From the IMG/VR virus record IMGVR_UViG_3300048580_000994, positions 1 through 64,000 of that record: DNA of 64,000 nt; one strand, given 5' to 3'. This document shows, piece after piece, positions 14,499 through 31,168 of the stretch. The notes under the pieces were generated by a model. The model was not told the origin of the DNA, ran no database searches, and saw nothing but the letters and a program-made list of their open reading frames with translations. The position numbers and the translations under genes were made by a program. Each line of letters starts with the position of its first letter. Position 1 is the first letter of the stretch. This DNA is from a virus.

Positions 14499-14596
14499 AA
14501 CGAAACCCTCCTAAAATTTAATCTATCTGTTATTTATCAATTTGATTTCCAAAACACCATTATGCTATACTAAATAAAATTAAAAAGGAGAACCCC

Positions 14597-15097
14597 ATGG
14601 GCGTATATATCGTGTATAGCAATATTTTTGATGAAGATGGCGGGCAACTTGCCAAAATTTTGATGCATGTCTGTGCCACCCCAATTGTGGCTGTGAAAAT
14701 CATCGAGATTATGAAAGAGCAAGATAAAGAGTCTGCGATGATTTATGAAAAGTATGAAGAATTTGGGGAAAAATGGATGGAAGAAAATCCAAAGCCTGAT
14801 TTATGGGATGAGGAAACCTATGATGCAATGTTCCCAAAACCTGAAGCCAAAGATGCCATTAAAATTTGGAAAGATGAAAAAAAGGCTATGAAGTCAAGGA
14901 TTTTAAAATCCCATAAAGAATGGACGAAAACGTTCATCAAAGCCATCAACGGATTATTGGAACAATATGGGATTGATTTTGAGGATTTACAATCCTTCCC
15001 AATGTTTAACGATGAAACAGTTGAATATTCTGTTGAGTGTGAGGAGATCGTGTTTGACGTTACCCCTGTTGACGTTGAAAAAATTGATGAAAATTAA
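14597..15097 (+). CDS. Hypothetical acidic protein
   Basis: AAGGAG RBS; promoter TGCTATACT upstream. Confidence 0.7.
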   Translation: MGVYIVYSNIFDEDGGQLAKILMHVCATPIVAVKIIEIMKEQDKESAMIYEKYEEFGEKWMEENPKPDLWDEETYDAMFPKPEAKDAIKIWKDEKKAMKSRILKSHKEWTKTFIKAINGLLEQYGIDFEDLQSFPMFNDETVEYSVECEEIVFDVTPVDVEKIDEN

Positions 15098-15170
15098 AAA
15101 ATTGCATTTTTTTATATATATTATGTCGTTTTTTAAAAAATTATATAAATAAAAATAGTGAAAATTTTTG

Positions 15171-15393
15171 TTGACATGCTAAATAGAATTTGGTAGAGTC
15201 ATGAAAGTCGCAGGAACGAATGGATTTGAAGGTTTGAAATTTTTTCAAAAAAATGAAAAAAAGATTTGACAACCCCATAAAGACCTGTTAGAGTGATTAA
15301 ATGATGAAGGGGACGAAAGAAACCTAAGTCGCAAAAAAAAGTTTCAAAATGTTGAAAAAAAGTGTTGACATGAGAAACTAAATAGGATAGAGT
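15171..15393 (+). promoter_or_regulatory. Three tandem sigma70-type promoters (TTGACA-17-TAGAGT) driving the tRNA array
   Basis: -35 at 15171, 15266, 15365; -10 at 15194, 15289, 15388; A-tracts upstream. Confidence 0.85.
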
Positions 15394-15441
15394 GATTAAA
15401 GATTAGGGGAATAACCCCCATAGAAAACTAGACGAAGGATT

Positions 15442-15651
15442 ATGAATAAAATGTTTAATACCGTTGCACACATTTCTGGATTATATACACAAAGCCATAC
15501 ATGGCAAAGTGTGTCCAGCTGTGACCGCCGCTATCACCTCGATAGCACCGCGATTACAGGTGTCAAAGGTGGGAATGAAGCCATGGGTAAACCCCAATCA
15601 TTTATTCCAGCATTTGAAAATAATACCCGAGGAGGGTTCAGACCAAGCTAA
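15442..15651 (+). CDS. Putative attenuator leader peptide of tRNA operon (69 aa)
   Basis: AAGGA RBS; all 20 amino acids; 3' end overlaps antiterminator strand. Confidence 0.6.
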   Translation: MNKMFNTVAHISGLYTQSHTWQSVSSCDRRYHLDSTAITGVKGGNEAMGKPQSFIPAFENNTRGGFRPS

Positions 15652-15680
15652 CGCAAAGTCTGAAATTGGATTAAAAACCC

Positions 15681-15714
15681 AAAACCCTCCAAGAGAAATC
15701 TAGGAGGGTTTTTT
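15681..15714 (+). terminator. Intrinsic terminator (attenuator) upstream of tRNA array
   Basis: AAAACCCTCC-AAGA-GAAA-TCTA-GGAGGGTTTTTT. Confidence 0.8.
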
Positions 15715-15939
15715 ATTGGTTAAAGTGAATTAGGCGACCTATCTGCCTTTAACAGCTTAAAATGTTATGAAAATTAGGGGGCCGAGGATGAAGTGCCGGA
15801 ATGCACAAGTAAAAGTCGGTGGTGAAGGAAACCAAGGAGCAATACCTTGTAGTAGCTTCATCAGGTTGCCGTCATATGGTAACCTTAAAATCAATTCTTC
15901 ATCAGACGATGGACGAAAGAATATCGTCTGATGAATTAT

Positions 15940-16011
15940 GAGACTATCTTCTAATGGTTAGGAATCTAGACTTTCAATCTGGCAATCGGGGTTCAATTCC
16001 CCGTAGTCTCA
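15940..16011 (+). tRNA. tRNA-Glu(TTC)
   Basis: Cloverleaf; CTAGA-CTTTCAA-TCTGG. Confidence 0.85.
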
Positions 16012-16019
16012 CTAATTAT

Positions 16020-16099
16020 CTCCCCAACGACTAATGGCAGGTCAATAGGCTTTCAACCTATGGTTCAACACCAAGTCGGTTCGATTCCGTCTGGGGGGA
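16020..16099 (+). tRNA. tRNA-Glu(TTC) with extended variable arm
   Basis: ATAGG-CTTTCAA-CCTAT; GGT-TCAAC-ACC arm. Confidence 0.7.
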
Positions 16100-16112
16100 C
16101 TTAACGAATAAT

Positions 16113-16186
16113 GGGGTATGACTGTCACATATGGGAGACAGCAGGAGAGATCCTCTTGGGTAGTGGTTCAACTCCACTATACTCCA
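16113..16186 (+). ncRNA. tRNA-like RNA without canonical anticodon loop
   Basis: Acceptor GGGGTAT/ATACTCC and T arm intact; AGGA-GAGA-TCCT replaces anticodon arm. Confidence 0.55.
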
Positions 16187-16191
16187 CTAAT

Positions 16192-16263
16192 CAGGAATGA
16201 AGAGGCTGGGTAATCAGTCAGTTTTGGAAGCTGGCGAGGGTGGTTCGATTCCACCATTCCTGA
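16192..16263 (+). tRNA. tRNA-Pro(TGG)
   Basis: TCAGT-TTTGGAA-GCTGG; C1-G72. Confidence 0.75.
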
Positions 16264-16274
16264 CGAAATATTAT

Positions 16275-16349
16275 CTTGGTGAGGGCCATGTGGGAGGCCA
16301 CCAGTTTTGGGAACTGGTCACCGTGCAGGTTCGAATCCTGTCACCAAGA
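16275..16349 (+). tRNA. tRNA-Pro(TGG)
   Basis: CCAGT-TTTGGGA-ACTGG. Confidence 0.8.
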
Positions 16350-16355
16350 CGTAAT

Positions 16356-16436
16356 GGAAGGGCTGGGTACGAGTGAACCCAAGAGTCTGTAAAACTCCCC
16401 TTAATTGTGTGATGGTGCAAATTCCGTCCCCTTCCA
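16356..16436 (+). tRNA. tRNA-Tyr(GTA)
   Basis: GAGT-CTGTAAA-ACTC; near-identical copy at 21175. Confidence 0.75.
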
Positions 16437-16454
16437 CAAAAATGAAGAAATTAT

Positions 16455-16527
16455 GGTGGCTATAGTGTAGAAGTAACACACAACACTGTGAATGTTGTAT
16501 CACGATGGCAGAATTCGTTAGTCACCC
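16455..16527 (+). tRNA. tRNA-His(GTG)
   Basis: CAACA-CTGTGAA-TGTTG; atypical T loop. Confidence 0.75.
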
Positions 16528-16540
16528 TTATAAAATTTAT

Positions 16541-16612
16541 GGACCGGTAGTTCAGAGGAAGAACAGTAGGCTTTTAACCTGCGTGTCGGGATATCGTAAT
16601 TCCCCCGGTCTA
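16541..16612 (+). tRNA. tRNA-Lys(TTT)
   Basis: GTAGG-CTTTTAA-CCTGC. Confidence 0.8.
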
Positions 16613-16626
16613 CAAAATGAAATTAT

Positions 16627-16700
16627 GGATTCTTAACTCAGTTGGTTAGAGTGCCGTCCTTTTAAGTCGGAAGTCGTCAGTTCGAGCCTGACAGAATCTA
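16627..16700 (+). tRNA. tRNA-Lys(TTT)
   Basis: CCGTC-CTTTTAA-GTCGG; canonical D and T arms. Confidence 0.85.
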
Positions 16701-16709
16701 CGAAATAAT

Positions 16710-16783
16710 GCCCGAATAGTGACAAATGGAAAACACGCCGCCCTTGTAACGCGGAAATATCGGATCATACTCGATTTTGGGCA
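16710..16783 (+). tRNA. tRNA-Thr(TGT)
   Basis: CCGC-C-CTTGTAA-C-GCGG. Confidence 0.75.
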
Positions 16784-16797
16784 CAAAGAAAACTTAT

Positions 16798-16889
16798 GGA
16801 CTCTAGGGAACTCTTGGTTTGTTCCAACGGGCTTTTAACCCGTCTTGCTTAACGCAATTGGCCAGTTCGATTCTAGGCAGAGTCTACCA
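16798..16889 (+). tRNA. tRNA-Lys(TTT) with long variable arm, encoded CCA
   Basis: ACGGG-CTTTTAA-CCCGT; TTGC-TTAAC-GCAA arm. Confidence 0.7.
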
Positions 16890-17751
16890 CTTTATTAAAA
16901 TACTTATCTTGTGCTTCTTTTACTGTTCTTGTTTTTATACCAAGATATTGTAAAAGAAAAAATGGTCCAGCAGGGTTTGGGTTTTTTAATAGTTCACATA
17001 ATTGTGGGGTACTATATTGGTTGTATAATGATTGGGCATAATTTTTACAAGTATTCCAATCATTGATAAATTCAGGTGTACCCAAATTATCTAATGATAA
17101 ATTAAAATATTTGTTTAGTCCTTTTAATATTTGGGTTGAACGATTGATGCCACAAAGGCAATTTGGTTTTTTTGTTCCACAAAATTTACACAAGGTTTTA
17201 TCTATTATTGGTGGTTTGTGTGATTTAGTGTTTTTATTTTCCCAAGATAACAGAGGGCGATATTTTACTGCTTTTGGTCCATACCACCCTTGTCCAATAT
17301 ATTCTTCCAATAATAATTTGGATATTTTGGTTCGTGTGTTGGTTAAAGGTTGTATAACCCAACAGGTTCCAAATTGCGAGTTTTTATCACCAGATTGTGT
17401 ATTGCTCATTGTTGTGCTCATATTTTTTCTGGCATAATCATATAAGCGTGAATTAAAATATCGTTGTATATTACACCAAGAAGAACTTTTCATCATATTA
17501 AATGCCATAATCATACTATACCAACTGTGTGATTTTTCAGGTAGCATTTTACAAAGAAGATAGTGACATATAAAATGTTCTCTAGCAGTTAAAAAAACTA
17601 AATTATCGTTGGTATCATCACCATCCAACGACCTTGGGATGATGTGGTGTTTTTCATAATATTGGGTTTTAGATTTAACCCTTGGTTGTGATTTAGCGTT
17701 TTGGATAATTCCATAATACCAATTATAGTATTTATTTTTTATAAAAATCAT
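16873..17751 (-). CDS. HNH homing endonuclease (MIFIKNKYY family)
   Basis: EKHHIIPRSLDG..NLVFLTAREHFICH; start re-set to ATG 17751 with GGAG RBS; paralogues at 31524 and 50275. Confidence 0.85.
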   Translation of the reverse strand: MIFIKNKYYNWYYGIIQNAKSQPRVKSKTQYYEKHHIIPRSLDGDDTNDNLVFLTAREHFICHYLLCKMLPEKSHSWYSMIMAFNMMKSSSWCNIQRYFNSRLYDYARKNMSTTMSNTQSGDKNSQFGTCWVIQPLTNTRTKISKLLLEEYIGQGWYGPKAVKYRPLLSWENKNTKSHKPPIIDKTLCKFCGTKKPNCLCGINRSTQILKGLNKYFNLSLDNLGTPEFINDWNTCKNYAQSLYNQYSTPQLCELLKNPNPAGPFFLLQYLGIKTRTVKEAQDKYFNKVVDSA

Positions 17752-17774
17752 TTGTATTCTCTCCGAATAAAGTG

Positions 17775-17858
17775 TATAAATAAAAGGAGTGGGACAAGCC
17801 CTTCTCCGATGGGTTTCTAATACCGGCAAAGTATTGGATACCACTAATCTTATTTATC
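17775..17858 (+). ncRNA. Nuclease-associated three-way-junction sRNA element
   Basis: TATAAATA..AGTGG-GACAA-GCCC-loop(TCTCCGA)-GGGT-hairpin-TA-CCACT..TATTTATC. Confidence 0.75.
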
Positions 17859-17918
17859 AAATAATTCTTAATATAGCAGAAAATAGTTATAAAAATCAAT
17901 ATTTTAATTAAAAATTTT

Positions 17919-17991
17919 AGTCCCTTAGCTCAGAGGCAGAGCGGCAGGTTCTTACCCTGCGTCAGCGAGATTTCAAAATTCTCAGGGACTA
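17919..17991 (+). tRNA. tRNA-Lys(CTT)
   Basis: GCAGG-TTCTTAC-CCTGC. Confidence 0.75.
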
Positions 17992-17996
17992 CTAAT

Positions 17997-18069
17997 GGAC
18001 GATTAGCTCAAGTGGTAGAGCAACTGACTCTTAATCAGTAGGTTCCCAGATCATGGCTGGGATCGTTCA
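17997..18069 (+). tRNA. tRNA-Lys(CTT)
   Basis: ACTGA-CTCTTAA-TCAGT. Confidence 0.8.
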
Positions 18070-18242
18070 CTAATTATAGCAGGTTGATAAAATCAAATTA
18101 CAGACTTGCAAGCTGGGTAGTCCAACGCTATCTAAATAATTTGGTGCTATAATGGATTTCAGCATGGTGATGAACTTGTAAGACTGATTGATTTGATTAG
18201 ACGTAAGATGAACGTCCAATAAGGTGTGAAGCCTTTGATTAT

Positions 18243-18331
18243 TCCTGTCGGCGTGGCTAGGTGAAACGCATGGACTGTTAATCCATTGGCTCGTAGGGAT
18301 ACGGGGCGAGGTTCGAATCCTCGGACAGGAG
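18243..18331 (+). tRNA. tRNA-Asn(GTT) with long variable arm
   Basis: ATGGA-CTGTTAA-TCCAT; CTCGTA-GGGA-TACGGG arm; G73. Confidence 0.8.
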
Positions 18332-18380
18332 CGGAATATACGGTTGAAAGTGACGATAAGAATGGGAACTTTCAAAAAAT

Positions 18381-18453
18381 GGTACTGAAGAGCAATTGGT
18401 TGAGCCGCTTGACTGTCTATCAGGTGTACGGGGTTCAATTCCCCGCAGTATCG
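18381..18453 (+). tRNA. tRNA-Asp(GTC)
   Basis: CTTGA-CTGTCTA-TCAGG; G73. Confidence 0.75.
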
Positions 18454-18522
18454 CATAAAGTAACTGTGGTACCCTGATGGGTTCCTTAATTAACCACCTT
18501 TAGTGTGGTAGCAGTTTTTAAT

Positions 18523-18591
18523 GGGCTTTCCGTATAGGACGGACCCTGCACTTGCAATGCGGGAGGGTCGGGGCAGTACCGACAAGGTCCA
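18523..18591 (+). tRNA. tRNA-Ala(TGC), degenerate D/T arms
   Basis: CTGCA-CTTGCAA-TGCGG; G3:U70. Confidence 0.65.
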
Positions 18592-18606
18592 CAAAAATAA
18601 AATAAT

Positions 18607-18679
18607 GGGTAGATGGTGAAGCTAGTGCTCACATCGTTCTGAAAAAGCGAAGACCAAGGTGCGATCCCTTGTCTACCCA
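18607..18679 (+). tRNA. tRNA-Phe(GAA)
   Basis: TCGTT-CTGAAAA-AGCGA. Confidence 0.75.
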
Positions 18680-18684
18680 CTTAT

Positions 18685-18755
18685 GGTCTGTTAGTTCAAA
18701 GGAAGAACAAACGCTTGATAAGCGTTAGATGGGATATCGTAATTCTCACGGACCA
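18685..18755 (+). tRNA. tRNA-Ile(GAT)
   Basis: AACGC-TTGATAA-GCGTT. Confidence 0.75.
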
Positions 18756-18760
18756 CTTAT

Positions 18761-18831
18761 AGGAGCGACTCAGGGCTAGTAAGCACGGCCGATAACCGTG
18801 TGATGTTGGAGTTCAAATCTCCCCGTTCCTA
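18761..18831 (+). tRNA. tRNA-Ile(GAT), degenerate
   Basis: CACGG-CCGATAA-CCGTG. Confidence 0.6.
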
Positions 18832-18836
18832 CTTAT

Positions 18837-18907
18837 GCCATCTTAGTACAACAGTAGTATTACCGGTTGAAGCCCGGTCGATCTTGGGGCGGGACCAAGG
18901 GGTGGCA
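18837..18907 (+). tRNA. tRNA-Phe(GAA)
   Basis: ACCGG-TTGAAGC-CCGGT. Confidence 0.7.
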
Positions 18908-18912
18908 CTTAT

Positions 18913-18985
18913 GGGCTTATAGGCTAATTGGATAAACCTTTGGACTACGAATCCGAAATTCCAGATTCGAATTCTGGTAAGCCCG
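18913..18985 (+). tRNA. tRNA-Arg(ACG)
   Basis: TTGGA-CTACGAA-TCCGA. Confidence 0.85.
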
Positions 18986-19116
18986 CTACACACTGGACTA
19001 TATTAGCAATAATATAAAATAACAGTGTTTCTACCCATAATATTAGTATAATAGTAATGCAACCAGCCAAAAGGGTTGGGTGATATCAAGGCAGGATTGA
19101 TATATTATGGTTAAAT

Positions 19117-19190
19117 GCTTCCATAGTGATAATTGGTTAACACGATTCTTTGGTAAGGAATAAATCTCGGATCATTCCCGGGTGGAAGCT
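19117..19190 (+). tRNA. tRNA-Thr(GGT)
   Basis: ATTCT-TTGGTAA-GGAAT. Confidence 0.8.
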
Positions 19191-19202
19191 CTTAAACGAT
19201 AT

Positions 19203-19285
19203 GGAGAATGCCGGGGTTGGCTCCCCAAACAGTCTTGAAAACTGTGGTGACCGCAAGGTCAATAGTTCGATGCTATCATTCTCCG
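19203..19285 (+). tRNA. tRNA-Ser(TGA)
   Basis: ACAGT-CTTGAAA-ACTGT; long variable arm; G73. Confidence 0.8.
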
Positions 19286-19300
19286 CTTAACTTATTTTAT

Positions 19301-19381
19301 GCCCGAGTGATGTAACAGCAGCCATGCAACGCTAAGAACGTTGTGCCGAAAGGCGTGCAGGTGCAATTCCTGTCTCGGGTA
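19301..19381 (+). tRNA. tRNA-Leu(AAG), A34
   Basis: CAACG-CTAAGAA-CGTTG; GCC-GAAA-GGC arm. Confidence 0.8.
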
Positions 19382-19487
19382 CTAAAAATTTTCAACGTAG
19401 GGACCAGTACCATGGCGAACACGAACAAAATGGACAATATCAAGATAGTGATCATAGGCTTGATATTCGTTGAAAATTTTTTGATAT

Positions 19488-19561
19488 GTCGGGTATGGCA
19501 TGGTGCCTTCGAAGGGATTGGCCGTCTGGAGAAGAATGGGGTTCAAATCCACCGCCCGATA
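19488..19561 (+). pseudogene. Degenerate tRNA-like sequence
   Basis: GTCGGGT/GCCCGAT ends and GGTTCAAATCC T loop; no anticodon arm. Confidence 0.4.
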
Positions 19562-19652
19562 CGAAAATTTTTTGATATTTTTGAAAAAAGTATTTGACAA
19601 CATGGTTAAAAGTGGATATATTGTATAAATAGAAAGTGATTAACGCACTTAT

Positions 19653-19731
19653 GCCCATGTGGTGGAATGGCAGACACGCCTGACTCAAAATCAGGTTCGA
19701 AAGAGTGGGGGTTCAAGTCCCTCCATGGGCA
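19653..19731 (+). tRNA. tRNA-Leu(CAA)
   Basis: CCTGA-CTCAAAA-TCAGG; own TTGACA and TATAAATA promoters upstream. Confidence 0.9.
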
Positions 19732-19937
19732 CTAAAAGTTTATTGATTCTTTTTAAAAATCAATTGGCGTCCCCGGTGAAAGGTCTGCTCATGGACCTCC
19801 AGTAATGGTGTCCGAATGGACATAAGATGTTGACCTTTGTGGCGATTGGTTAGTAACAAACATCGAAAAGGACAGAAGCCTCTGGTGCCCAACGTAAGTG
19901 TTGGGCTGGGCAGTCAAGAGCCAAGTAATCTTGATAT

Positions 19938-20010
19938 GCGGGCATAGCTCAGTTGGTAGAGTACAAGTTTTCCAAACTTGGTGTCGTCGGTTCAAGCCCG
20001 TCTGCCCGCT
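19938..20010 (+). tRNA. tRNA-Gly(TCC)
   Basis: CAAGT-TTTCCAA-ACTTG. Confidence 0.9.
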
Positions 20011-20046
20011 CAAAACATTGAAATAGCACAATTTTTAAAAATTGTG

Positions 20047-20766
20047 CTATTTGTTTATATAAATTGGCATTGATGAATTATACCAATTATTATTATATTC
20101 AGAGTATTTGGTATTCCATTCGTCAATTTCTAATAATAATTGTTCTAAAGTAACTGATGAATTTCCACACTTGGAACAATTGTCCTTTTTTAATAAATAT
20201 TCACAGTTGGCAGGATGTGACAATATCATTGGATTTATATTGTTTTTATAACCATTAACGACTGAATAACGATGGTCTTTATCATAGTTGTTTCCTTCAA
20301 TAATATTATTAAAACCTAATAAACAATGCTTAATATTGTCGTGTATTTTTTTAAATCTGGATAATGTTCTGTAGTTTTTAAATGGCTCGACATCTGCAAT
20401 AGTTAGTCCAAATTTTTTGAGTAATGTGTTTCTTTGTTGTTCCCTTGATTTTTCTGAACGATTTTTATTAGAGTTATCTCCAGAACAAGTTTGTGAACAA
20501 AAAGAATTTCGTCTTTGTTCATAAGGAATATTGTTGCCACATACCAAACATTTTTTGACAAATGAAGCTGTTGATATTGCCAATCGTTCTTTATTGGTTA
20601 AAAATCCTGCTTCTTTAATTGCGTTACTCCAACTACCAAATGTTCTTTCAAAGTGTCCATAATGAATGCTTGGTGAAAAAGTAAAATCGTTTCTTGATGG
20701 TATTTTATTATGTTGATTATAAAAATTTTTTAGTTCTGAAATTAAAAAGTCTTTAGTATATTTCAT
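20047..20766 (-). CDS. Zn-ribbon + HNH-like endonuclease (DH..S..G..HPANC family)
   Basis: N-terminal FGSWSNAIKEAG repeat, CxxC..FCSxxC, DHRYS..HPANC..N motif. Confidence 0.75.
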   Translation of the reverse strand: MKYTKDFLISELKNFYNQHNKIPSRNDFTFSPSIHYGHFERTFGSWSNAIKEAGFLTNKERLAISTASFVKKCLVCGNNIPYEQRRNSFCSQTCSGDNSNKNRSEKSREQQRNTLLKKFGLTIADVEPFKNYRTLSRFKKIHDNIKHCLLGFNNIIEGNNYDKDHRYSVVNGYKNNINPMILSHPANCEYLLKKDNCSKCGNSSVTLEQLLLEIDEWNTKYSEYNNNWYNSSMPIYINK

Positions 20767-20790
20767 TTGACATAATCTCCGGTTTCGGGT

Positions 20791-20881
20791 TATAAATAAA
20801 GGAGTGGGACAAGCCCTCCTCCGGTTGGGTTTCTATTGCCGCCACAGCAATGGATACCACTAATTCTTTATATTATTTATC
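20791..20881 (+). ncRNA. Nuclease-associated three-way-junction sRNA element
   Basis: Loop CTCCGGTT equals RBS region 20777-20784. Confidence 0.75.
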
Positions 20882-20913
20882 ATTTTAGTTGTAAAAGTCA
20901 ATATTATTTTTAT

Positions 20914-21163
20914 CTTTCTATAGTTTAATTAGAAAATCAAGTATATCATTCCAGTACAACGTAAGAAAATTTCAGGAAATCATCAGCTAACAAATCGCAA
21001 GGCTATAAAAACATTGAGCCAAGGGAAGTGCTTGGACAGGGCGAAATGATGAAATGAAATTAGTAAGACGTTTGAAAAAATGATTGAAAGATGAGTATTA
21101 GGTAAAACACCGGCATAGCATTGCGATTGGAGCCGGAGATTCTGTTCAAGTCAGACATGAAAG
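20914..21163 (+). ncRNA. tRNA-framed ncRNA with ~180-nt D-loop insertion
   Basis: CTTTC/GAAAG, GTTT/AAAC, CCGGC/GCCGG, TCTG-TTCAAGT-CAGA. Confidence 0.5.
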
Positions 21164-21174
21164 GCTAATTTAAT

Positions 21175-21255
21175 GGAAGGGCTGGGTACGAGTGAACCCA
21201 AGAGTCTGTAAAACTCCCCTTAACTGTGTGATGGTGCAAATTCCGTCCCCTTCCA
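21175..21255 (+). tRNA. tRNA-Tyr(GTA), duplicate of 16356
   Basis: One substitution relative to 16356-16436. Confidence 0.75.
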
Positions 21256-21264
21256 CAAACAGAA

Positions 21265-21341
21265 CAACTTGATATGGTGTAATGGCTGCACGGACCACAT
21301 GGAGTGGTCAGGTATTGGTTCAAATCCTTTCTCATTGTTGA
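21265..21341 (+). pseudogene. Degenerate tRNA (GACCA-CATGGAG-TGGTC arm)
   Basis: D arm and T loop recognisable, acceptor and T stems broken. Confidence 0.4.
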
Positions 21342-21463
21342 AGTTAAATCAAATCTGCAGGTTTGGTACTTCGTGTTCAGGGACGCTTGAACATTGTTCT
21401 GAAGATTTCCAGAGAGGTTTGTAAGTAGACCCTGTAAGCGTTGACTGGGGAAACTTTCATTAT

Positions 21464-21549
21464 TCCGGGGTCGTCTAATTTGGTAGGACACCTGACTTTG
21501 AATCAGGGAGATTAACATCTCTGTGCAGGTTCGACTCCTGCTCCCGGAT
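21464..21549 (+). tRNA. tRNA-Gln(TTG) with long variable arm
   Basis: CCTGA-CTTTGAA-TCAGG; GAGAT-TAAC-ATCTC arm. Confidence 0.8.
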
Positions 21550-21609
21550 CAAAAACAATAAGCGGTTGTAGGTGTAGACGTGTTAGATAGGAACCTTCAT
21601 TTTTATTAT

Positions 21610-21685
21610 ATCGGTATAGTGTTAACGGTTAGCACGATGGTCTCCAAAACCACAAGTCAGGGTTCGAATCCTTGTACCGATGCCA
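21610..21685 (+). tRNA. tRNA-Trp(CCA)
   Basis: TGGT-CTCCAAA-ACCA; GCCA end. Confidence 0.9.
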
Positions 21686-21692
21686 AATTCAT

Positions 21693-21766
21693 ACTTCCGG
21701 ATGGTGTGGGCACCTGTTATCCTTGACTCGGATGATGTTAGAGTTCAATTCTCTACGGAAGTACCA
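21693..21766 (+). tRNA. tRNA-Val(GAC), reduced D loop
   Basis: TATCC-TTGACTC-GGATG; ACCA end. Confidence 0.7.
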
Positions 21767-21860
21767 AAATTGCATTCGTTAGGGTACCTTGATTATGTTG
21801 GTAAAAAATCTTGAGTATCTCAAAGCAATACCATCCAACAATGGTTAGTAAGGTTCGAAC

Positions 21861-22682
21861 TTACTTGATATATCTGGGTAATGTGTGGTTGCCAAATTCC
21901 CATAATACTATTCGAAGAAATAGTTCATTCAATGTTATAGTTGATGATATTCTTCTGTTAAAATTTTCTTTATATGGAACCATTTCTGCGTTTGCAGGAT
22001 GTTTTATTAATTCAAATGATATATTATTTTTATATCCTTCTTGTATTTGGTATAAATGGTCCCAAGTAACTCCGGTGGGGTTTGGGTTCATTGCTGAATG
22101 TGGTCTATACCACCCATAGTTTTTGATCATTTCAAAATCAAATAATTCACTATGTTTTTTGGAAGATAATGAAAACCTGCAACTTTTTCTGTAAAATGTT
22201 TTATTTTCATATCTACATTTTGTGCAATAACAAGAACTTCTTGATGCTGGACTGATAAATATAATATTACATTTTTCACATTGTTTGTATTTAATATTTG
22301 TGGTTGGGTATTCTTTTGGTGCTTTATATGTTGGTGATTTTGTTCTTGGATTTTGTTGGAAATATATTTTTAATTTTTTAGAAACAGTTAATCCAATTTG
22401 TTGTTTAGAAACATCTGATAGTGTCCAGCCATTTTCAATTCGTTTTTTATTAGTATAAGTAGCAGAACAAGAATGATTGCAGAAATCTTTTCTTTTATTA
22501 TCATAATCAATAATTATACCGCAGCACAAACATTTTTTAGGGTTTTGGTTGTATAGTTTGATGTTTTCGTTTTTAGTATGGTTGCCCAAACATTGTTTTG
22601 AGCAATAAGTCATTGATCTTTTATCTTTGATTATAAATTCTTTTTTACATTCTTGGCATATAGCAGTTTTTTTAATTTTCAT
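21861..22682 (-). CDS. Zn-ribbon + HNH-like endonuclease (HPAN family)
   Basis: CxxC/CSxxC repeats; WDHLY..GY..HPANA..EN. Confidence 0.75.
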   Translation of the reverse strand: MKIKKTAICQECKKEFIIKDKRSMTYCSKQCLGNHTKNENIKLYNQNPKKCLCCGIIIDYDNKRKDFCNHSCSATYTNKKRIENGWTLSDVSKQQIGLTVSKKLKIYFQQNPRTKSPTYKAPKEYPTTNIKYKQCEKCNIIFISPASRSSCYCTKCRYENKTFYRKSCRFSLSSKKHSELFDFEMIKNYGWYRPHSAMNPNPTGVTWDHLYQIQEGYKNNISFELIKHPANAEMVPYKENFNRRISSTITLNELFLRIVLWEFGNHTLPRYIK

Positions 22683-22706
22683 TTGACATAATCTCCGGTT
22701 TCGGGT

Positions 22707-22797
22707 TATAAATAAAGGAGTGGGACAAGCCCTCCTCCGGTTGGGTTTCCATTATCCGCTAAGTAATGGATACCACTAATTCTTTATATTATTTATC
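22707..22797 (+). ncRNA. Nuclease-associated three-way-junction sRNA element
   Basis: Same P1/P2 as 20791 copy, different P3 hairpin. Confidence 0.75.
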
Positions 22798-22829
22798 ATT
22801 TTGGTTGTAAAAGTCAATATTTAAATTAT

Positions 22830-22904
22830 GCTCGGTAGATCGCTGGGGCGACGATGATCCTTACAAGATTGTTGTGGTGGGTCCAATCCCCACACCGAGT
22901 ACCA
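22830..22904 (+). tRNA. tRNA-Val(TAC)
   Basis: TGATC-CTTACAA-GATTG; ACCA end. Confidence 0.75.
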
Positions 22905-22993
22905 AATAAAAATTAAACTTCAATGGACAATGGCGTATCCCGACATTGTGGGAAGTTTATACAGTTTTGTGGTATCTGTGTCAAACCACTTTT

Positions 22994-23073
22994 GGCCTGT
23001 GGGACTGCATGGTGTAGTCGCCCGCCTGTCACGCGGGAGGTTCAGAGGGGATCGTTACCCCTACAGGTCGCCA
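22994..23073 (+). tRNA. tRNA-Asp(GTC)
   Basis: CCCGC-CTGTCAC-GCGGG; GCCA end. Confidence 0.8.
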
Positions 23074-23079
23074 AACCAT

Positions 23080-23219
23080 CGCAGAGCAAGTCCTTTCATT
23101 TGGGACGAAAGAGGGAGTAGGCACTTGAAGTCGAAACCGTGAGTGGTGCTGCAACCAATTTCCGAAAGGACTGGACAATAAAAGTCCAAGACTCGCAGCG
23201 ATTCCCACCTCTGCAACCA
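23080..23219 (+). ncRNA. Structured ~140-nt RNA with acceptor-like closing stem and ACCA end
   Basis: GCAGAG/CTCTGC + AACCA; internal hairpins. Confidence 0.5.
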
Positions 23220-23222
23220 ATT

Positions 23223-23294
23223 CAGGGTGTAGCTTAAAAGAAAAGTGCTGGTCTCGGAAACCAGAGACTGGGTTTGCAAGATACCCCATCCTGA
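23223..23294 (+). tRNA. tRNA-Pro(CGG)
   Basis: CTGGT-CTCGGAA-ACCAG. Confidence 0.7.
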
Positions 23295-23307
23295 CAAAAT
23301 GTTTTAT

Positions 23308-23381
23308 GGGCTGTGTAATGGGGTTACGGGTGACTTTTGCAAAGTTGCTGATTCAGGAGGGTTCGATTCCCCCACGGTCCA
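23308..23381 (+). tRNA. tRNA-Ala(TGC)
   Basis: TGACT-TTTGCAA-AGTTG; G3:U70. Confidence 0.65.
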
Positions 23382-23387
23382 CTTAAT

Positions 23388-23459
23388 GGGGAATGGGCGA
23401 GGTACCCGGATAATCATGGCATGATTATAGCCTGATCGGAGCGTTACCGATATTCTCCA
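23388..23459 (+). tRNA. tRNA-Ala(GGC)
   Basis: TAATC-ATGGCAT-GATTA; G3:U70. Confidence 0.65.
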
Positions 23460-23576
23460 CAAACAATTACCAAGATTGTATCGGTGAAAAAGTCTACGTA
23501 AAGTCGGGACGAATCGAACAAAAAGGTGTTAGAATATTGTTCATTTTGGTTAAAGACTGTGACCAAAAATATTAAT

Positions 23577-23650
23577 GCGGGTATGATGTAAAGGTTGCCT
23601 GAAGCGTTGCCAACGCTTACTTGGGATTTCGATTCCATCTAGGTACTCCA
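23577..23650 (+). pseudogene. tRNA-Gly(GCC) with disrupted 3' end
   Basis: AAGCG-TTGCCAA-CGCTT; acceptor pairing poor. Confidence 0.5.
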
Positions 23651-23689
23651 CTCATATAAATACTAAGTACAATTACGGAGGATAATTTT

Positions 23690-24214
23690 ATGAAAATACA
23701 TGAAATCATATATGAGACACTTGGTGCTACGTCATATCCATGGAAGTTAGTGGATCGATCAGCATCTAGCAATACCTATGAGTTTTTCAACGCACAACAG
23801 ATAAAGTATATTGTAGACTTAATGCACAGTACTCAATTCTCAGAATTAGTTAAAGCTAAAATCGATATTGCTCGTGTTGTTTTTAGAAATCAAGTTTCAA
23901 TTGATTCGAGTAAAGAAAATCTACACATCACCAATACTGGTGATGCTTGGGGAGTATTCTCTACAGTAATAGATATTATAAAACACGCAATAAACGAGTC
24001 AAACTTTGATATTATTGTTTTTGAAGCCGACAAGAAAGAGCCTAGTAGGGTTAGGTTGTATTCTACATTTATGTCACGTGTACAGCAAGTCCTGCCTAAT
24101 TATATTGCAGCACCAGCAGTTGATGCAGACTGGCTAATCAGATACAGGCTTGTGAAAAAAGATTCACCTTTGAATACTCCACTATTCATGTCCCCAAAGA
24201 AGAAAAAGAAGTAA
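23690..24214 (+). CDS. Late hypothetical protein with MKIHE N-terminus (possible head-internal protein)
   Basis: TATAAATA 23656; GGAGG RBS; TGDA..VFSTV..SRVRLY motif. Confidence 0.7.
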   Translation: MKIHEIIYETLGATSYPWKLVDRSASSNTYEFFNAQQIKYIVDLMHSTQFSELVKAKIDIARVVFRNQVSIDSSKENLHITNTGDAWGVFSTVIDIIKHAINESNFDIIVFEADKKEPSRVRLYSTFMSRVQQVLPNYIAAPAVDADWLIRYRLVKKDSPLNTPLFMSPKKKKK

Positions 24215-24274
24215 TTTAAGCCGCTGGTGTTGGTTCGATTCCCTTCTGGTCCACGGAAAGATAAATAATATAAT

Positions 24275-24359
24275 GCGGGTGTCGCATAGCGGCTATTGCG
24301 CTTGCTTGCCAAGCAAGAGACCCTAAAGGTCATCACGGATTCGAGTTCCGTCACCCGCT
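24275..24359 (+). tRNA. tRNA-Gly(GCC) with long variable arm
   Basis: CTTGC-TTGCCAA-GCAAG; GACC-CTAAA-GGTC arm. Confidence 0.8.
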
Positions 24360-24381
24360 CCTAATAATATTTAAAGTTTGA

Positions 24382-24452
24382 TTGGGTATCGTCTAGTGGT
24401 AAGACAAACGGCTGTTAACCGTTCAACCGAAGTTCGAATCTTCGTACCCGAA
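24382..24452 (+). tRNA. tRNA-Asn(GTT)
   Basis: AACGG-CTGTTAA-CCGTT. Confidence 0.85.
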
Positions 24453-24474
24453 CTGAAAAGATAAATACAATAAT

Positions 24475-24546
24475 GGATCGTTAGCAAATCAACTAATGCG
24501 GCCGGCTGCAACCCGGCAGGACTCAGGGTAGCACTGAGACGGTCCT
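24475..24546 (+). tRNA. tRNA-Cys(GCA)
   Basis: GCCGG-CTGCAAC-CCGGC; U73. Confidence 0.7.
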
Positions 24547-24582
24547 CTACAATTTTTAAATAAATAAATTGACATTTGATGA

Positions 24583-25221
24583 ATGAATATGATAAATAAT
24601 AATATGACAAACTGTTATCAATATTATTATTTATATCAAATCACTAATTTATTAGATGGTAAAATTTACATAGGAGTTCATAAAACAAATAATCTTGGTG
24701 ATGGTTATTTGGGGTCTGGTACCCTTTTATTGAGGGCATATAATAAGTATGGTGTTGAAAATTTTGAAAAACAAATTTTAGAATTTTTTGATAATGCTGA
24801 TGATATGTTAATGAGAGAAAGTGTGGTTGTTAATTTGGATTTTATTAATAGGGATGATACTTATAATATTAAAACTGGTGGATTGCAGGGAATACTTGAC
24901 CAACATACATTAAATAAAATAAAAGAAACCTTTAAACTTAAAAAAATAAGTCATGGTGAGACAAATACACAGTTTGGTACAATGTGGATAACCAATGGGG
25001 TTGACAATAAAAAAATTAAAAAAGATGATGAAATACCTTTTGGTTGGAAAAAGGGGAGGGTCATGCCATCTGATTGGGGTAAAAATATTGGGGATAAATT
25101 GAGGGGTAGAACTTTAGAGGATATTCAGGGTTATGAAAAAGCCCAACAAACTAAAAAACGTATTTCAAATTTTCAAAAAAATAAATATGCGTTGATTAAA
25201 AATAAAAATGATCTGGAGTGA
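24583..25221 (+). CDS. GIY-YIG homing endonuclease (Seg-like); start possibly 24604
   Basis: YLYQITNLLDGKIYIG, YLGSG, YNIKTGG, WITNG..GWKKGR. Confidence 0.85.
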   Translation: MNMINNNMTNCYQYYYLYQITNLLDGKIYIGVHKTNNLGDGYLGSGTLLLRAYNKYGVENFEKQILEFFDNADDMLMRESVVVNLDFINRDDTYNIKTGGLQGILDQHTLNKIKETFKLKKISHGETNTQFGTMWITNGVDNKKIKKDDEIPFGWKKGRVMPSDWGKNIGDKLRGRTLEDIQGYEKAQQTKKRISNFQKNKYALIKNKNDLE

Positions 25222-25351
25222 ATACCAGGGAGGACGATTACAAGATCGTAGATGAATGTCAGGATAATACAGAACCCCGGCTATAGGATGTTAAAAATAT
25301 TTGTAAATACTATATAATCATATTATAATAATGAATGATGGAGAATAAAAA

Positions 25352-26005
25352 ATGCGATTGCGAGAATTTTTACCGGGCAAATCATCTATTCAATTAATCT
25401 CTGAAGCCAGAGCGATGAAGGGTGATTATGCTGCAGATGAACAATTCAAGGAAACGTTTTTATCACCATTGAGTAAAATAGTTTTTGAAAATAATTGGGA
25501 AGATTGTGATAATATTGATATTGATGGGCAAATAATGAAAATTATTGCCAGTAAATCGGATGACACTTATGCTGTTGGATATTGGAGAAATGATGAAAAT
25601 CAGAAAACCATTTTTCAAAGAATTTGTGTTATACAACTTATTGATTGTTTGTATTTGGCGTCTAAGTTAAAAACTTATCCAGAAATGCGCCAAGTGACCA
25701 TGATTTTTGTCACAGAAAGTTTTAGGAGTACTAAAATTGCAAAAAAGATGTATCAATGGTTTGTTCAGCAAGGATTTTCATTAATAGGTGATGTTGAGCA
25801 ATATTTTGGTGCAAGAAAATTGTGGTGTGCATTGTCAAAAATTTCCACTTTGCGTGTTGATGTTGTGAATAGGAACACAGGAACTATTATTCAACAAGGT
25901 AGAATTATAGAGCATGGTGAATTGGACCATGAATTTGATAATGAGATATGGGCTTATGATAGTAGTAAAAATGATATTGGTTTGATATTGATTGATATTA
26001 GGTAA
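25352..26005 (+). CDS. GNAT-fold protein with MRLRE N-terminus
   Basis: FVTESFRSTKIAKKMY and GARKLW motifs. Confidence 0.6.
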   Translation: MRLREFLPGKSSIQLISEARAMKGDYAADEQFKETFLSPLSKIVFENNWEDCDNIDIDGQIMKIIASKSDDTYAVGYWRNDENQKTIFQRICVIQLIDCLYLASKLKTYPEMRQVTMIFVTESFRSTKIAKKMYQWFVQQGFSLIGDVEQYFGARKLWCALSKISTLRVDVVNRNTGTIIQQGRIIEHGELDHEFDNEIWAYDSSKNDIGLILIDIR

Positions 26006-26012
26006 AAATTAT

Positions 26013-26087
26013 GGTGGTCGTGGCGGAATTGGTAAACGCAACGGATTGTGATTCCGTAAACTGGGGGTTCGAGTCCCCTCGATCACC
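26013..26087 (+). tRNA. tRNA-His(GTG)
   Basis: ACGGA-TTGTGAT-TCCGT; 8-bp acceptor with G-1. Confidence 0.9.
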
Positions 26088-26099
26088 CGGATAAAAAAT

Positions 26100-26188
26100 G
26101 GTGTAGTCCCATAATGGTATTGGAGCGGATTGCTAATCCGTCGGACGTTAATAGCGTCTTCAGAGTTCGAGTCTCTGCTACACCGCCA
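26100..26188 (+). tRNA. tRNA-Ser(GCT)
   Basis: GCGGA-TTGCTAA-TCCGT; long arm; GCCA. Confidence 0.9.
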
Positions 26189-26196
26189 ATAATAAT

Positions 26197-26269
26197 GGCT
26201 CGTCTGTTGGTTTTTACAGCACAAGGTCTTCGAAACCATGATGGAAATGTTCGATTCATTTACGGGTCA
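26197..26269 (+). tRNA. tRNA-Arg(TCG), degenerate
   Basis: GGT-CTTCGAA-ACC. Confidence 0.6.
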
Positions 26270-26322
26270 CTAAAAATTTTGGGCGATGGAAACGGGATTC
26301 GATTTCCCACAGGTCCACTTAT

Positions 26323-26412
26323 GGGTAGTAAAGTAGCTGGGAGCTACACAGGTTTGGAAAACCTGTTGGCGTTGAAAAACACGCTGGGGATCGAGACCTC
26401 TGCTACCCGCCA
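26323..26412 (+). tRNA. tRNA-Ser(GGA)
   Basis: CAGGT-TTGGAAA-ACCTG; long arm; GCCA. Confidence 0.8.
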
Positions 26413-26432
26413 ACAACAACTGAGGTACTATC

Positions 26433-26630
26433 ATGATAGAAATAATTGGTGGTATATTAATAGTATTATTGATATTATTAAACATTCGTTTTAGAAATTT
26501 ATTGAAAGATGCAAGAGATACCAGTCTTAAACTTTTAGAACAATTGGAAGAAAGTAAAAAACAAGTCATTGAATTACATAAACAAAATTCCCTATTAATG
26601 GGAGAAAACGTAAAGTTAAAATCAAAATAA
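26433..26630 (+). CDS. Small membrane-anchored coiled-coil protein
   Basis: N-terminal TM, GAGG RBS. Confidence 0.6.
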   Translation: MIEIIGGILIVLLILLNIRFRNLLKDARDTSLKLLEQLEESKKQVIELHKQNSLLMGENVKLKSK

Positions 26631-26635
26631 ATTAT

Positions 26636-26717
26636 GCCGGTGTGATGTAATGGTAGCCTTGCCTCGCTTAAAACGAGGTGTCCTTGAGACGTGCAGGTTC
26701 AAATCCTGTCGCCGGTA
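26636..26717 (+). tRNA. tRNA-Leu(TAA)
   Basis: CCTCG-CTTAAAA-CGAGG. Confidence 0.9.
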
Positions 26718-26790
26718 CTTAAAAAATATTGACAATACCCAATCTATCATGCAAAGATGATAATCTAATTTAATAAAAGGAACCAATTGA

Positions 26791-27528
26791 ATGGAAGATA
26801 TGATTAATCGTGTATATTTGGGTAGTTGTTTAGATTTAATGGCTAAAATTCCAGATGGTAGTATTGATTTGGTAGTCACCGACCCGCCTTATGGCATTTT
26901 ATTTGTGAACAACCATTCGAAAGAACAATTTGAAGAAATATCAAATGATGATTTCGCAAGCACAAAACCATTGTTAGAAGAATATTTTAAAGAGTGCTAT
27001 CGTATTTTAAAAGAAGATTCTGCTATTTATAGTTTTTGTTCTTGGCATAAGGTTGATTTTTTTAAACAAGAAATTGAAAAATATTTTACAATGAAAAATT
27101 TATTATTATGGTCTAAAAAGGATGGTGATACCCCAACATCGAAGCCAATTCATACTACAGGTGATTTGGCTGGTGCATATGGAGTAAGTACCGAGTTGAT
27201 AGTTTATGCCCATAAAGGTAGGTGTTTGAATCGTGGGAAGCGTTATATTGATTTATTGTCATTTCCAAGGGAAAACACTAAATTAATAGGACACCCGACA
27301 CCAAAACCACCATTGTTGCTAAAATTATTGATTGAAAATTCAAGTGATAAAGATGCAATTATTTTTGATGGATTCGCTGGTTCTGGGTCGACAGGGGTTG
27401 CCTGTGCAATGTCTGGAAGAAGATTTATAGGTGCAGAATTAAATGATGGTTATCATAAAATTGCCACAAAAAGAATTAATGATGAATTTGAAAAAATGAG
27501 TAACCCGTTAATTCAATGGGGGGATTAA
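26791..27528 (+). CDS. DNA N4-C/N6-A methyltransferase (beta class)
   Basis: VTDPPY, HPTPKP, DGFAGSGST motifs. Confidence 0.92.
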   Translation: MEDMINRVYLGSCLDLMAKIPDGSIDLVVTDPPYGILFVNNHSKEQFEEISNDDFASTKPLLEEYFKECYRILKEDSAIYSFCSWHKVDFFKQEIEKYFTMKNLLLWSKKDGDTPTSKPIHTTGDLAGAYGVSTELIVYAHKGRCLNRGKRYIDLLSFPRENTKLIGHPTPKPPLLLKLLIENSSDKDAIIFDGFAGSGSTGVACAMSGRRFIGAELNDGYHKIATKRINDEFEKMSNPLIQWGD

Positions 27529-27538
27529 TCCCCCATTG
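27514..27538. terminator. Hairpin between convergent genes
   Basis: CAATGGGGGA-TTAA-TCCCCCATTG. Confidence 0.6.
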
Positions 27539-27548
27539 CTGGTTAATT

Positions 27549-28622: not shown

Positions 28623-28795
28623 AATTTGTATCCTTTTTGTATTAATTATATATTATATAATAGTATTTATCTTTTTGTCAATTTTAATGGTGGTTATGGT
28701 GCTAAAAACGAACTTTTTTAATCTTTTTGAATTTTAGTCCTTGACATCTAAGAAAAATCCAGCTATACTATGTGGACAATTTAGGAGTAACGACG

Positions 28796-29023
28796 ATGAA
28801 CATTCATGTTATTGCGAAGAGCGCCAAGCAGAACCCCATCACTGAATGGGACGTTAGGATTGTTGGAAGCAATGAAGGAGAGCCTCTTGCCACCATTCGC
28901 AAGACTGATGAGGGGATTTTCATTCTTGAAGGTTTCGCTGAAGTGAAGGTTGGCAATAGTCTCAATGAAGTTAGGGACGAAGCCCAGTTTATTCTTGATA
29001 AGATGAGTGTGTTGATTAATTAA
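28796..29023 (+). CDS. Hypothetical early protein
   Basis: TTGACA..TATACT promoter, AGGAG RBS, ATG 28796. Confidence 0.6.
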   Translation: MNIHVIAKSAKQNPITEWDVRIVGSNEGEPLATIRKTDEGIFILEGFAEVKVGNSLNEVRDEAQFILDKMSVLIN

Positions 29024-29031
29024 AAGGTTAT

Positions 29032-29112
29032 GCCGGAGTGATGTAATGGTAGCCTTGACGGTTTTAGAAACCGTTGTCGAAAGACGTGCAGGTTCAAGTC
29101 CTGTCTCCGGTA
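29032..29112 (+). tRNA. tRNA-Leu(TAG)
   Basis: ACGGT-TTTAGAA-ACCGT; GTC-GAAA-GAC arm. Confidence 0.9.
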
Positions 29113-29113
29113 C

Positions 29114-30283: not shown

Positions 30284-30306
30284 TTGCATTTTCTCCGAAT
30301 AAAGTA

Positions 30307-30397
30307 TATAAATAAAAGGAGTGGGACAAGCCCTTCTCCGATGGGTTTCCAATACTTCCGACGGTGTTGGATACCACTACTATTTATATTATTTATC
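30307..30397 (+). ncRNA. Nuclease-associated three-way-junction sRNA element
   Basis: Loop TTCTCCGA equals RBS region 30291-30298. Confidence 0.75.
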
Positions 30398-30431
30398 ATT
30401 TTAGTTGTAATTGTCAATATTTAATTTTTAT

Positions 30432-30507: not shown

Positions 30508-30522
30508 CTAAAATGTTTTTAT

Positions 30523-30596: not shown

Positions 30597-30606
30597 CTTA
30601 TATTAT

Positions 30607-30676: not shown

Positions 30677-30692
30677 CTACTAAAAAGTTTTT

Positions 30693-31163: not shown

Positions 31164-31168
31164 TATAT

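Follow-up and report, generated by a model that had tools for sequence, protein, structure and literature searches.

The window analysed here comprises positions 1–64,000 of the 82.4-kb IMG/VR record IMGVR_UViG_3300048580_000994, which is estimated to hold about one-third of a phage genome. On its plus strand, a leader open reading frame (ORF) followed closely by an intrinsic terminator precedes a large array of tRNA genes, and a preliminary description of the DNA had proposed that this leader region (15442–15714) is a leader-peptide attenuator gating the array. The parts of the locus are listed in Table 1. On the evidence set out below, a leader-peptide (ribosome-mediated) transcription attenuator probably heads the tRNA array and belongs to a recurrent class of tRNA-array leaders (rough probability 0.68); the support is mainly comparative, and is weaker for the window taken by itself.

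Table 1. Features of the leader region and the tRNA array, in window coordinates.
Feature	Position	Strand	Description
Promoter P1	15171–15199	+	TTGACA-17-TAGAGT, TG-extended; 10/12 positions match
Promoter P2	15266–15294	+	TTGACA-17-TAGAGT; 10/12 positions match
Promoter P3	15365–15393	+	TTGACA-17-TAGAGT; 10/12 positions match
5' hairpin	15406–15419	+	GGGG-loop-CCCC at start of P3 transcript; folds
Shine–Dalgarno (SD)-like GAAGGA	15434–15439	+	2 nt before ATG 15442, 11 nt before ATG 15451
Leader ORF	15442–15651	+	69 sense codons and TAA; stop codon 15649–15651
Alternative in-frame starts	15451, 15583	+	66 and 22 codons, respectively; same stop
Antiterminator 5' arm	15631–15638	+	GGAGGGTT; SD-like, identical to terminator 3' arm
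Hairpin P2	15637–15664	+	TTCAGAC (15637–15643)/GTCTGAA (15658–15664); stop codon in loop
Intrinsic terminator	15681–15714	+	AAAACCCTCC-loop-GGAGGGTTTTTT and T-run 15709–15714 (6 T); also terminator-like on minus strand
Shared arm	15683–15690	+	AACCCTCC; pairs with 15631–15638 (antiterminator) or 15703–15710 (terminator)
Terminator 3' arm	15703–15710	+	second copy of GGAGGGTT
Spacer, terminator to first tRNA	15715–15939	+	structured, untranslated; fold z −4.43
tRNA array	15940–31453	+	33 ARAGORN genes; first block extends to internal promoter 19594

The leader region and its alternative folds

The three tandem promoters that had been described ahead of the leader ORF were all located. The plus strand of the 82-kb record holds 30 sites that combine a perfect TTGACA with a TAnnnT −10 box, compared with only one on the minus strand, and because of this bias the sigma70-type sites are taken to be real signals. 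The composition given earlier for the leader ORF (69 codons, 38 different sense codons, all 20 amino acids) agrees exactly with a count by script, and a full set of amino acids is not unusual at this length, occurring in 21% of random draws from the phage composition and in 116 of 1100 real windows of 69 residues. The ribosome-binding site (RBS) attributed to the ORF is less secure: an SD-like GAAGGA is present, but it is weak, its spacing (2 or 11 nt) is atypical and more than one start is possible. Gene callers from three sources placed the start at either 15442 or 15451, and two public gene calls take the latter.

The repeat of GGAGGGTT at 15631 as the 3' arm of the terminator, and the complementary AACCCTCC at 15683, are exactly where they had been reported, and the stop codon does fall within the loop of TTCAGAC/GTCTGAA. 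There are only four copies of GGAGGGTT on the plus strand of the window, and the one at 48027 was set aside as unrelated, being inside a tRNA-like stretch. The terminator stands 226 nt before the first tRNA and, with a folding energy (ΔG) of −17.1 kcal/mol on the plus strand and −18.6 on the minus strand, is among the strongest of 32 plus-strand candidates; its loop is longer than 8 nt. When the RNA is folded only to position 15692, leaving out the 3' arm, the minimum-free-energy structure pairs 15631–15637 with 15684–15690, while addition of the 3' arm causes the terminator to form, giving two mutually exclusive computed folds. The stop codon begins 18 nt after the start of the first arm, a position from which a terminating ribosome, with its textbook footprint, is placed to cover the 5' strand of the antiterminator.

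ARAGORN found 40 tRNAs in the window, 33 of them within the array, and at a relaxed threshold returned 49 candidates at 15.9–32 kb. The latter count is close to the figure of about 50 downstream tRNA genes in the preliminary description. Six candidates seen only at the relaxed threshold, for Tyr, Thr, Asp, Ile, Ser and Ala (16356–16437, 16710–16784, 18381–18454, 18761–18832, 19203–19286 and 19488–19562), include two that Rfam likewise scores as tRNA. A 14-bp hairpin in the spacer ahead of the array ends just before the tRNA-Glu gene.

Recurrence of the switch before phage tRNA arrays

The leader ORF is an orphan, with neither the distant homologues nor the predicted fold of a conserved small protein family. 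It has no PHROG match, no homologues in IMG/VR (peptide patterns and a degenerate DNA pattern) or in the Joint Genome Institute (JGI) metagenomes, and no match among GenBank phages by tblastn at E ≤ 10, nor were shorter homologues found. An exhaustive profile search returned only its own cluster and four long proteins that match in short repeated stretches, and the only relatives of the protein that were found form one cluster at 86% identity. The ESM Atlas model has a predicted local distance difference test (pLDDT) score of 0.29, and in a blastn search of GenBank phages the first tRNA gene alone gave a match. Since no homologue of the ORF was within reach, the architecture itself was searched for as a pattern: a first arm, 30–60 nt, the shared arm, 6–20 nt, and a second arm followed by a T-run.

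In IMG/VR the exact pattern occurs at 13 loci in 7 sequence families. Twelve of these have tRNA genes on the same strand 26–1119 nt downstream, and at the thirteenth the contig ends 255 nt past the motif, in sequence identical to that of two other loci. A relaxed form of the pattern gave 58 loci, comprising 22 with downstream tRNAs, the one that ends early, and 35 without tRNAs that lie mostly in GC-rich repeat contexts. A scan of metagenomes matched at least 120 stretches, from which 80 loci were examined and 48 had enough flanking sequence for testing. Among these 48, 23 had both an ORF stopping at +14 to +20 and a downstream tRNA, 2 had the ORF only, 3 the tRNA only and 20 neither (Fisher P = 3e-8 for the association). 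In bacterial and archaeal genome contigs, only 2 of 67 testable matches were followed by tRNAs; 27 of the 67 had an ORF stopping at +10 to +25 without tRNAs, which we take to be about chance level for so loose a filter and which has no bearing on the tRNA class. As a separate observation, three-arm switches in alphaproteobacterial genome contigs (L245, L287, L290, L291, L299, L300, L256, L268, L292, L294, L305 and others) from Hyphococcus, Denitrobaculum, Kiloniellaceae and relatives follow conserved ORFs of 38–47 codons that stop 22 nt after the arm, with no downstream tRNAs, and may perhaps be bacterial leader-peptide attenuators of other operons.

All 14 IMG/VR families carry an ATG-initiated ORF that runs through the first arm; its stop lies at +16 in 12 families and at +19 in two. 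Leaders from IMG/VR and the metagenomes were combined into a set of 31 distinct sequences with downstream tRNAs, among the matches listed, with the stop offset filtered to 14–20 and the start taken throughout as the first ATG of the open frame. In this set the stop lies at +16 in 20 leaders, at +19 in eight, and at +14, +15 and +20 in one each, compared with +18 in the window; an SD-like 4-mer is present at −17 to −5 in 20 of the 31. The arm is read as Glu-Gly in most leaders but as Gly-Gly-Phe in the window, which uses a different frame. The homologous leaders L173 and L131 also read it in frames different from each other, and L109, L140 and L174 use other frames too, the third frame being among those in use. 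As the reading frame varies, what is kept is the bases of the arm and the position of the stop, not the peptide. The inter-arm spacer forms a hairpin whose sequence varies, with a mean z of −2.74 in 32 tRNA-type switches versus −0.93 in 61 other matches, and −4.0 in the window.

These switches, of the form GGAGGGT/ACCCTCC/GGAGGGT and placed before phage tRNA arrays, are defined here as a class. The window has the three arms, the inter-arm hairpin, the T-run and the tRNA array on the same strand, and its energies (antiterminator −20.8, terminator −17.7) are typical when set beside the class means of −22.6 and −19.2, as are its structure and position. It is atypical in the length of its ORF and in its structured 5' part: sister leaders have 19–50 codons, so that the window ORF (69 or 66) is longer than any and only the 22-codon alternative falls within the range, and the short leaders elsewhere lack a long structured 5' part. 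The preliminary description had made its proposal depend on the ORF and GGAGGGTT being kept in relatives; the element withstands this, the same three-arm and ORF layout preceding tRNA arrays in many other phage contigs.

The codons of the sister leaders mirror the tRNAs that follow them. In the set of 31, 329 of 712 codons can be decoded by the leader's own array, compared with a permutation mean of 213 (sd 17.6, maximum 277), the observed value being reached in 0 of 20,000 permutations; for the 14 IMG/VR families the count is 191 of 348 (mean 138, sd 13, likewise 0/20,000), and it must be held against the reading that such permutation P values overstate independence, because many leader families are related. 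Compared with long ORFs of the same locus, the enrichment reaches a binomial P ≤ 0.001 in 6 of 13 families. A comparison within one phage comes from a single 330-kb contig (UViG_3300042564_002819), on which two tRNA arrays with complementary amino-acid sets each stand behind their own leader (L052 and L054). The codons of these two leaders match their own array in 19/22 and 16/23 cases and the other array in 1/22 and 3/23 (Fisher P = 2e-11). A leader of only 19 codons (L050) precedes tRNAs for Ile, Tyr, Phe, Glu, Lys, Lys, Met and Cys, by which 10 of its 12 tested codons are read. Two metagenome contigs (L148 and L157) carry leaders of 20–22 codons with tandem Trp-Trp and a stop 10 nt after the start of the arm, followed 6–7 nt past the terminator by a single tRNA-Trp gene, an arrangement that looks like a trp leader placed before tRNA-Trp. 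Leaders are also longer where the array covers more types of amino acid (Spearman 0.86, n = 16).

Proposed mechanism, alternatives and genomic context

According to the favoured reading, three strong sigma70-type promoters would start the leader transcript and a ribosome would translate the leader ORF. With smooth decoding, the ribosome at stop codon 15649–15651 would cover GGAGGGTT (15631–15638), leaving AACCCTCC to pair with 15703–15710, and with the terminator so formed transcription would end at the T-run 15709–15714. Should the ribosome lag or stall upstream for want of a usable tRNA, 15631–15638 would pair with 15683–15690, enclosing hairpin P2; this antiterminator would preclude the terminator, and RNA polymerase would continue into the tRNA genes. 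The new tRNAs would then relieve the stall, which amounts to negative feedback on decoding capacity. Phages with such leaders probably make tRNAs when ribosomes run short of them. For the window itself, we infer that the ORF is translated, that the position of the ribosome decides the fold, and that the 66–69-codon version, with all 20 amino acids, is a generalist sensor. A generalist sensor for a near-complete tRNA set is plausible, though unproven. The earlier suggestion of a general rather than a single-amino-acid switch fits the trend of leader length with array diversity, of which the window would be the generalist extreme.

Within the arm is a perfect SD core (GGAGG), followed 8–11 nt later by the last sense codon of the ORF. 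From this spacing it appears that a ribosome waiting at the stop could hold the arm through anti-SD pairing; such a clamp would account for a stop position that is preserved even though the reading frame across the arm varies. A fuller version, offered tentatively and doubtful as it stands, is that the window represents the generalist end of an undescribed viral circuit, in which an all-20 leader gauges host decoding capacity and replaces the tRNA pool on demand, with 16S rRNA clamping the SD-like arm at the stop. Possible triggers would include host shut-off, starvation and defence nucleases that cleave tRNA, the link to anticodon nucleases being conjecture.

A number of results from the window and its class count against the attenuator reading, and several of them favour other explanations. 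Because a match in the scans had to contain all three arms, the conserved arm sequence is not in itself evidence. Some long leaders show no codon enrichment (L093, 5/33; L094, 16/43; L100, 14/42), and arrays are cut off by contig ends. In the window, 46 of 62 leader codons match the array versus a background of 0.68 (P = 0.21), which is no enrichment, and 21 of 62 match the first tRNA block versus a background of 0.36; any match to the whole array would be undetectable because the array is near-complete, reading 41–44 of the 61 sense codons and leaving the test without power. Matches to the first block are more frequent in the last 15 codons (11/15) than in the first 47 (22/47), a difference that is not significant (P = 0.066). 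The distance from the SD-like sequence to either upstream ATG is outside the 6–9 nt found mostly in the long genes of the phage.

These last two points bear on the alternative that the switch is real but that its working leader is the 22-codon ORF from ATG 15583, with 15400–15582 forming a structured 5' untranslated region and the 69-codon frame being partly incidental. The shorter ORF has a length usual in the class, the codons just before its arm (Phe, Glu, Asn, Asn, Thr, Arg) match first-block tRNAs, and three strong hairpins occupy the part upstream of it. The SD-like sequence before 15583, however, has a mismatch in the core and is no better placed, none of the gene callers chose this start, and the relation between leader length and array diversity fits the long ORF. 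The long frame is also open in the window, in three variant proteins and in a DNA variant (X2), and we regard the short leader as unlikely.

The variants are themselves of limited help. The 86%-identical proteins (P0002, P0008 and P0009) differ from the window at five or six of the last eight residues, which could reflect several substitutions or compensating indels that shift the frame of the 8-mer, and no conclusion is drawn from them. The X2 variant (depth about 4) has two differences in 578 nt, both of them nonsynonymous, and one (T15637A) lies in the arm without a compensating change; both facts count against the attenuator reading. When the seven variant positions (five from the protein variants, two from X2) are placed on the predicted fold, four of the seven are mostly unpaired, which is uninformative.

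The strong folding of the leader RNA is a further difficulty. It is the most structured stretch sampled, with a z of −9.0, whereas 48 genome windows (20 shuffles each) average −1.39 and go no lower than −5.97, and it retains a z of −6.5 with dinucleotide shuffles; such structure is unexpected in an ORF that has to be read fast. The GC content is 0.43 versus 0.35 for the window. Before the comparative evidence, the case for a stable non-coding RNA looked as good as that for a leader peptide. In the non-coding case 15400–15714 would be a structured RNA, or a switch responding to a signal other than translation, such as tRNA or a small molecule, with an incidental ORF and a terminator that merely ends the RNA. 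Three tandem strong promoters suit a stable RNA, and the orphan protein with no predicted fold, the weak RBS, the two nonsynonymous changes out of two and a low codon adaptation index (0.594, compared with a mean of 0.697 and a range of 0.549–0.818) are in keeping with it. So too is the finding that, among 24 listed sequencing runs (18 studies) that hold part of 15160–15960, eight are metatranscriptomes (RNA libraries). The sister switches, however, always carry an ORF that stops just past the arm, in any frame and with codons that mirror the array, which a non-coding RNA would not explain, and the short leaders among them lack the long structured 5' part of the window. Nor was an Rfam family found: a scan of 14500–17000 at E ≤ 1 gave only tRNAs above threshold (no T-box; best non-tRNA hit 25.6 bits, compared with a gathering score of 60), and a scan of the whole window at gathering scores returned tRNAs only. 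This alternative is now considered improbable.

For the antiterminator, the computed gain in energy is small (ΔΔG −3.9 kcal/mol, third of 23 terminators tested) and 22 of 500 shuffled upstream sequences pair equally well, which is only modestly beyond chance. Promoters of the consensus type also occur inside the tRNA array, at 19594, 28741 and 29390, and therefore the switch is not the sole control of the roughly 50 tRNA genes and governs with certainty only the first block, to about 19.6 kb. Only assembled contigs from the public reads were compared with the locus. One from an RNA library (run X5) spans 15295–15587 and begins right after the −10 box of promoter P2, which is only a weak hint, since contig ends are not transcript ends; another (run X3, from a different study) spans 15485–15828 and so crosses the terminator. 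The two are consistent with expression and some read-through and are not decisive. Stretches left uncovered by the contigs, and runs sharing few sequence words with the locus, are given no weight.

From these data the locus might also be read as a small early gene of the ordinary kind, ending in a terminator of its own; the second copy of GGAGGGTT would be coincidental and the tRNAs would be served by leaky read-through and the internal promoters. GGAGGGTT is SD-like, is over-represented and is also the RBS of a neighbouring minus-strand gene. Against this, the arrangement recurs before tRNA arrays in unrelated contexts with its stop position conserved and its codons mirroring the tRNAs, while the peptide is conserved only in near-identical copies and is predicted to be unfolded, so that an ordinary gene appears very improbable. 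The attenuator proposed in the preliminary description is thus retained in qualified form: the leader ORF, the maskable arm, and the recurrence and codon mirroring elsewhere speak for it, but it would not be the only control of the array, and a codon match in the window itself was not detected.

Other observations concern the surroundings. Promoter sites at 19594, 28741 and 48090 stand directly before later tRNA blocks without a leader ORF. Genes of the homing-endonuclease type lie on the opposite strand amid the tRNA blocks, at 16873–17844 (−; a match to phrog_655), 20047–20766 (−), 21861–22682 (−) and elsewhere, and the leader terminator, being terminator-like on the minus strand too, could halt antisense transcripts from them. 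Beyond the window, at about 65940–65990 of the record, there is a terminator-like hairpin whose 5' arm is strongly sequestered by upstream sequence; its ΔΔG of −11.5 kcal/mol is the largest of the 23 terminators tested, and it may be another switch or a case of overlapping hairpins.

Phage genes in the record include a T4-type topoisomerase II and tail-fibre-like genes, and the closest cultured phage shares only 50% identity in the topoisomerase. Searches with other genes of the phage gave no comparable loci: the upstream gene of 166 aa has no relative in IMG/VR, four loci with topoisomerase relatives (43–55% identity) have no nearby tRNAs, and among 30 scanned of 44 loci with relatives of phosphoribosyl pyrophosphate (PRPP) synthetase (54–63% identity) no tRNA array of this kind was seen, 25 having no tRNA or tmRNA gene, three having 2–4 tRNAs and two a tmRNA. 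Sequencing runs that contain the stretch 15160–15960 come from lake, freshwater and drinking-water samples, and the assembled contigs placed on it, from different lakes and years, match the window exactly or almost exactly.

Comparison with known attenuators and tRNA arrays

What phages gain from tRNA genes, and at what point they draw on them, has long been an unanswered question. If the reading proposed here is true, phages adjust their tRNA supply by a direct probe of whether ribosomes are able to decode the matching codons; the sequence signature allows such switches to be found in metagenomes, and the question becomes testable with simple reporters or defined in vitro translation. The reading is relevant, too, to the conflict in which phage tRNAs face defence systems that cleave tRNA. 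New in the present case are an extreme member of the class, a shared switch (GGAGGGT/ACCCTCC/GGAGGGT) that is independent of frame and has its stop about 16–19 nt past the arm, and a leader length that scales with array diversity. A search of full-text literature, mostly without subscription journals or supplementary files, gave no description of phage tRNA genes, or of tRNA genes generally, being controlled through a leader peptide.

Leader attenuators control the amino-acid operons of trpL, hisL, leuL and pheL, and multivalent ones those of thrL and ilvGMEDA. Features shared with the trp and his type are a short promoter-proximal ORF, an intrinsic terminator, an exclusive antiterminator, a ribosome that at the stop would cover the 5' strand of the antiterminator and, in the sister leaders, codons cognate to the regulated product. 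The differences are that those systems control enzymes whereas tRNAs are downstream here, that many amino acids are spelled rather than a run of one, and that the window ORF has 66–69 codons rather than about 14–32. The arm is here an SD-like GGAGG, and no clear 1:2 anti-antiterminator was identified in the window. Leader-peptide attenuators of amino-acid operons are treated in the available parts of PMC1183508 and PMC3082878.

T-box riboswitches likewise sense the status of tRNA and choose between a terminator and an antiterminator, but they bind tRNA directly and need no ORF. In mef/mel (PMC4335068) and Bacillus subtilis yxjB (PMC6851288), as far as the accessible parts of these papers go, a ribosome stalled in a leader ORF blocks termination, so that both act as general sensors of translational trouble; they differ in responding to drug-bound ribosomes and in controlling resistance genes, not tRNA supply.

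The nearest published stress-induced tRNA array is the trn operon of Anabaena, a 26-gene array described in the accessible portions of PMC8421152 and PMC10272220 as being induced under translational stress. As proposed for the window, a large accessory array is turned on when translation is impaired; in Anabaena, however, control is exerted at the promoter by the repressor TrcR, which binds direct repeats, and in the available text of PMC8421152 the terms 'attenuat', 'leader' and 'terminator' occur 0 times. The switch proposed here would share with the Anabaena operon what is regulated, while its logic would extend that of the trp, his and ilv attenuators to tRNA genes.

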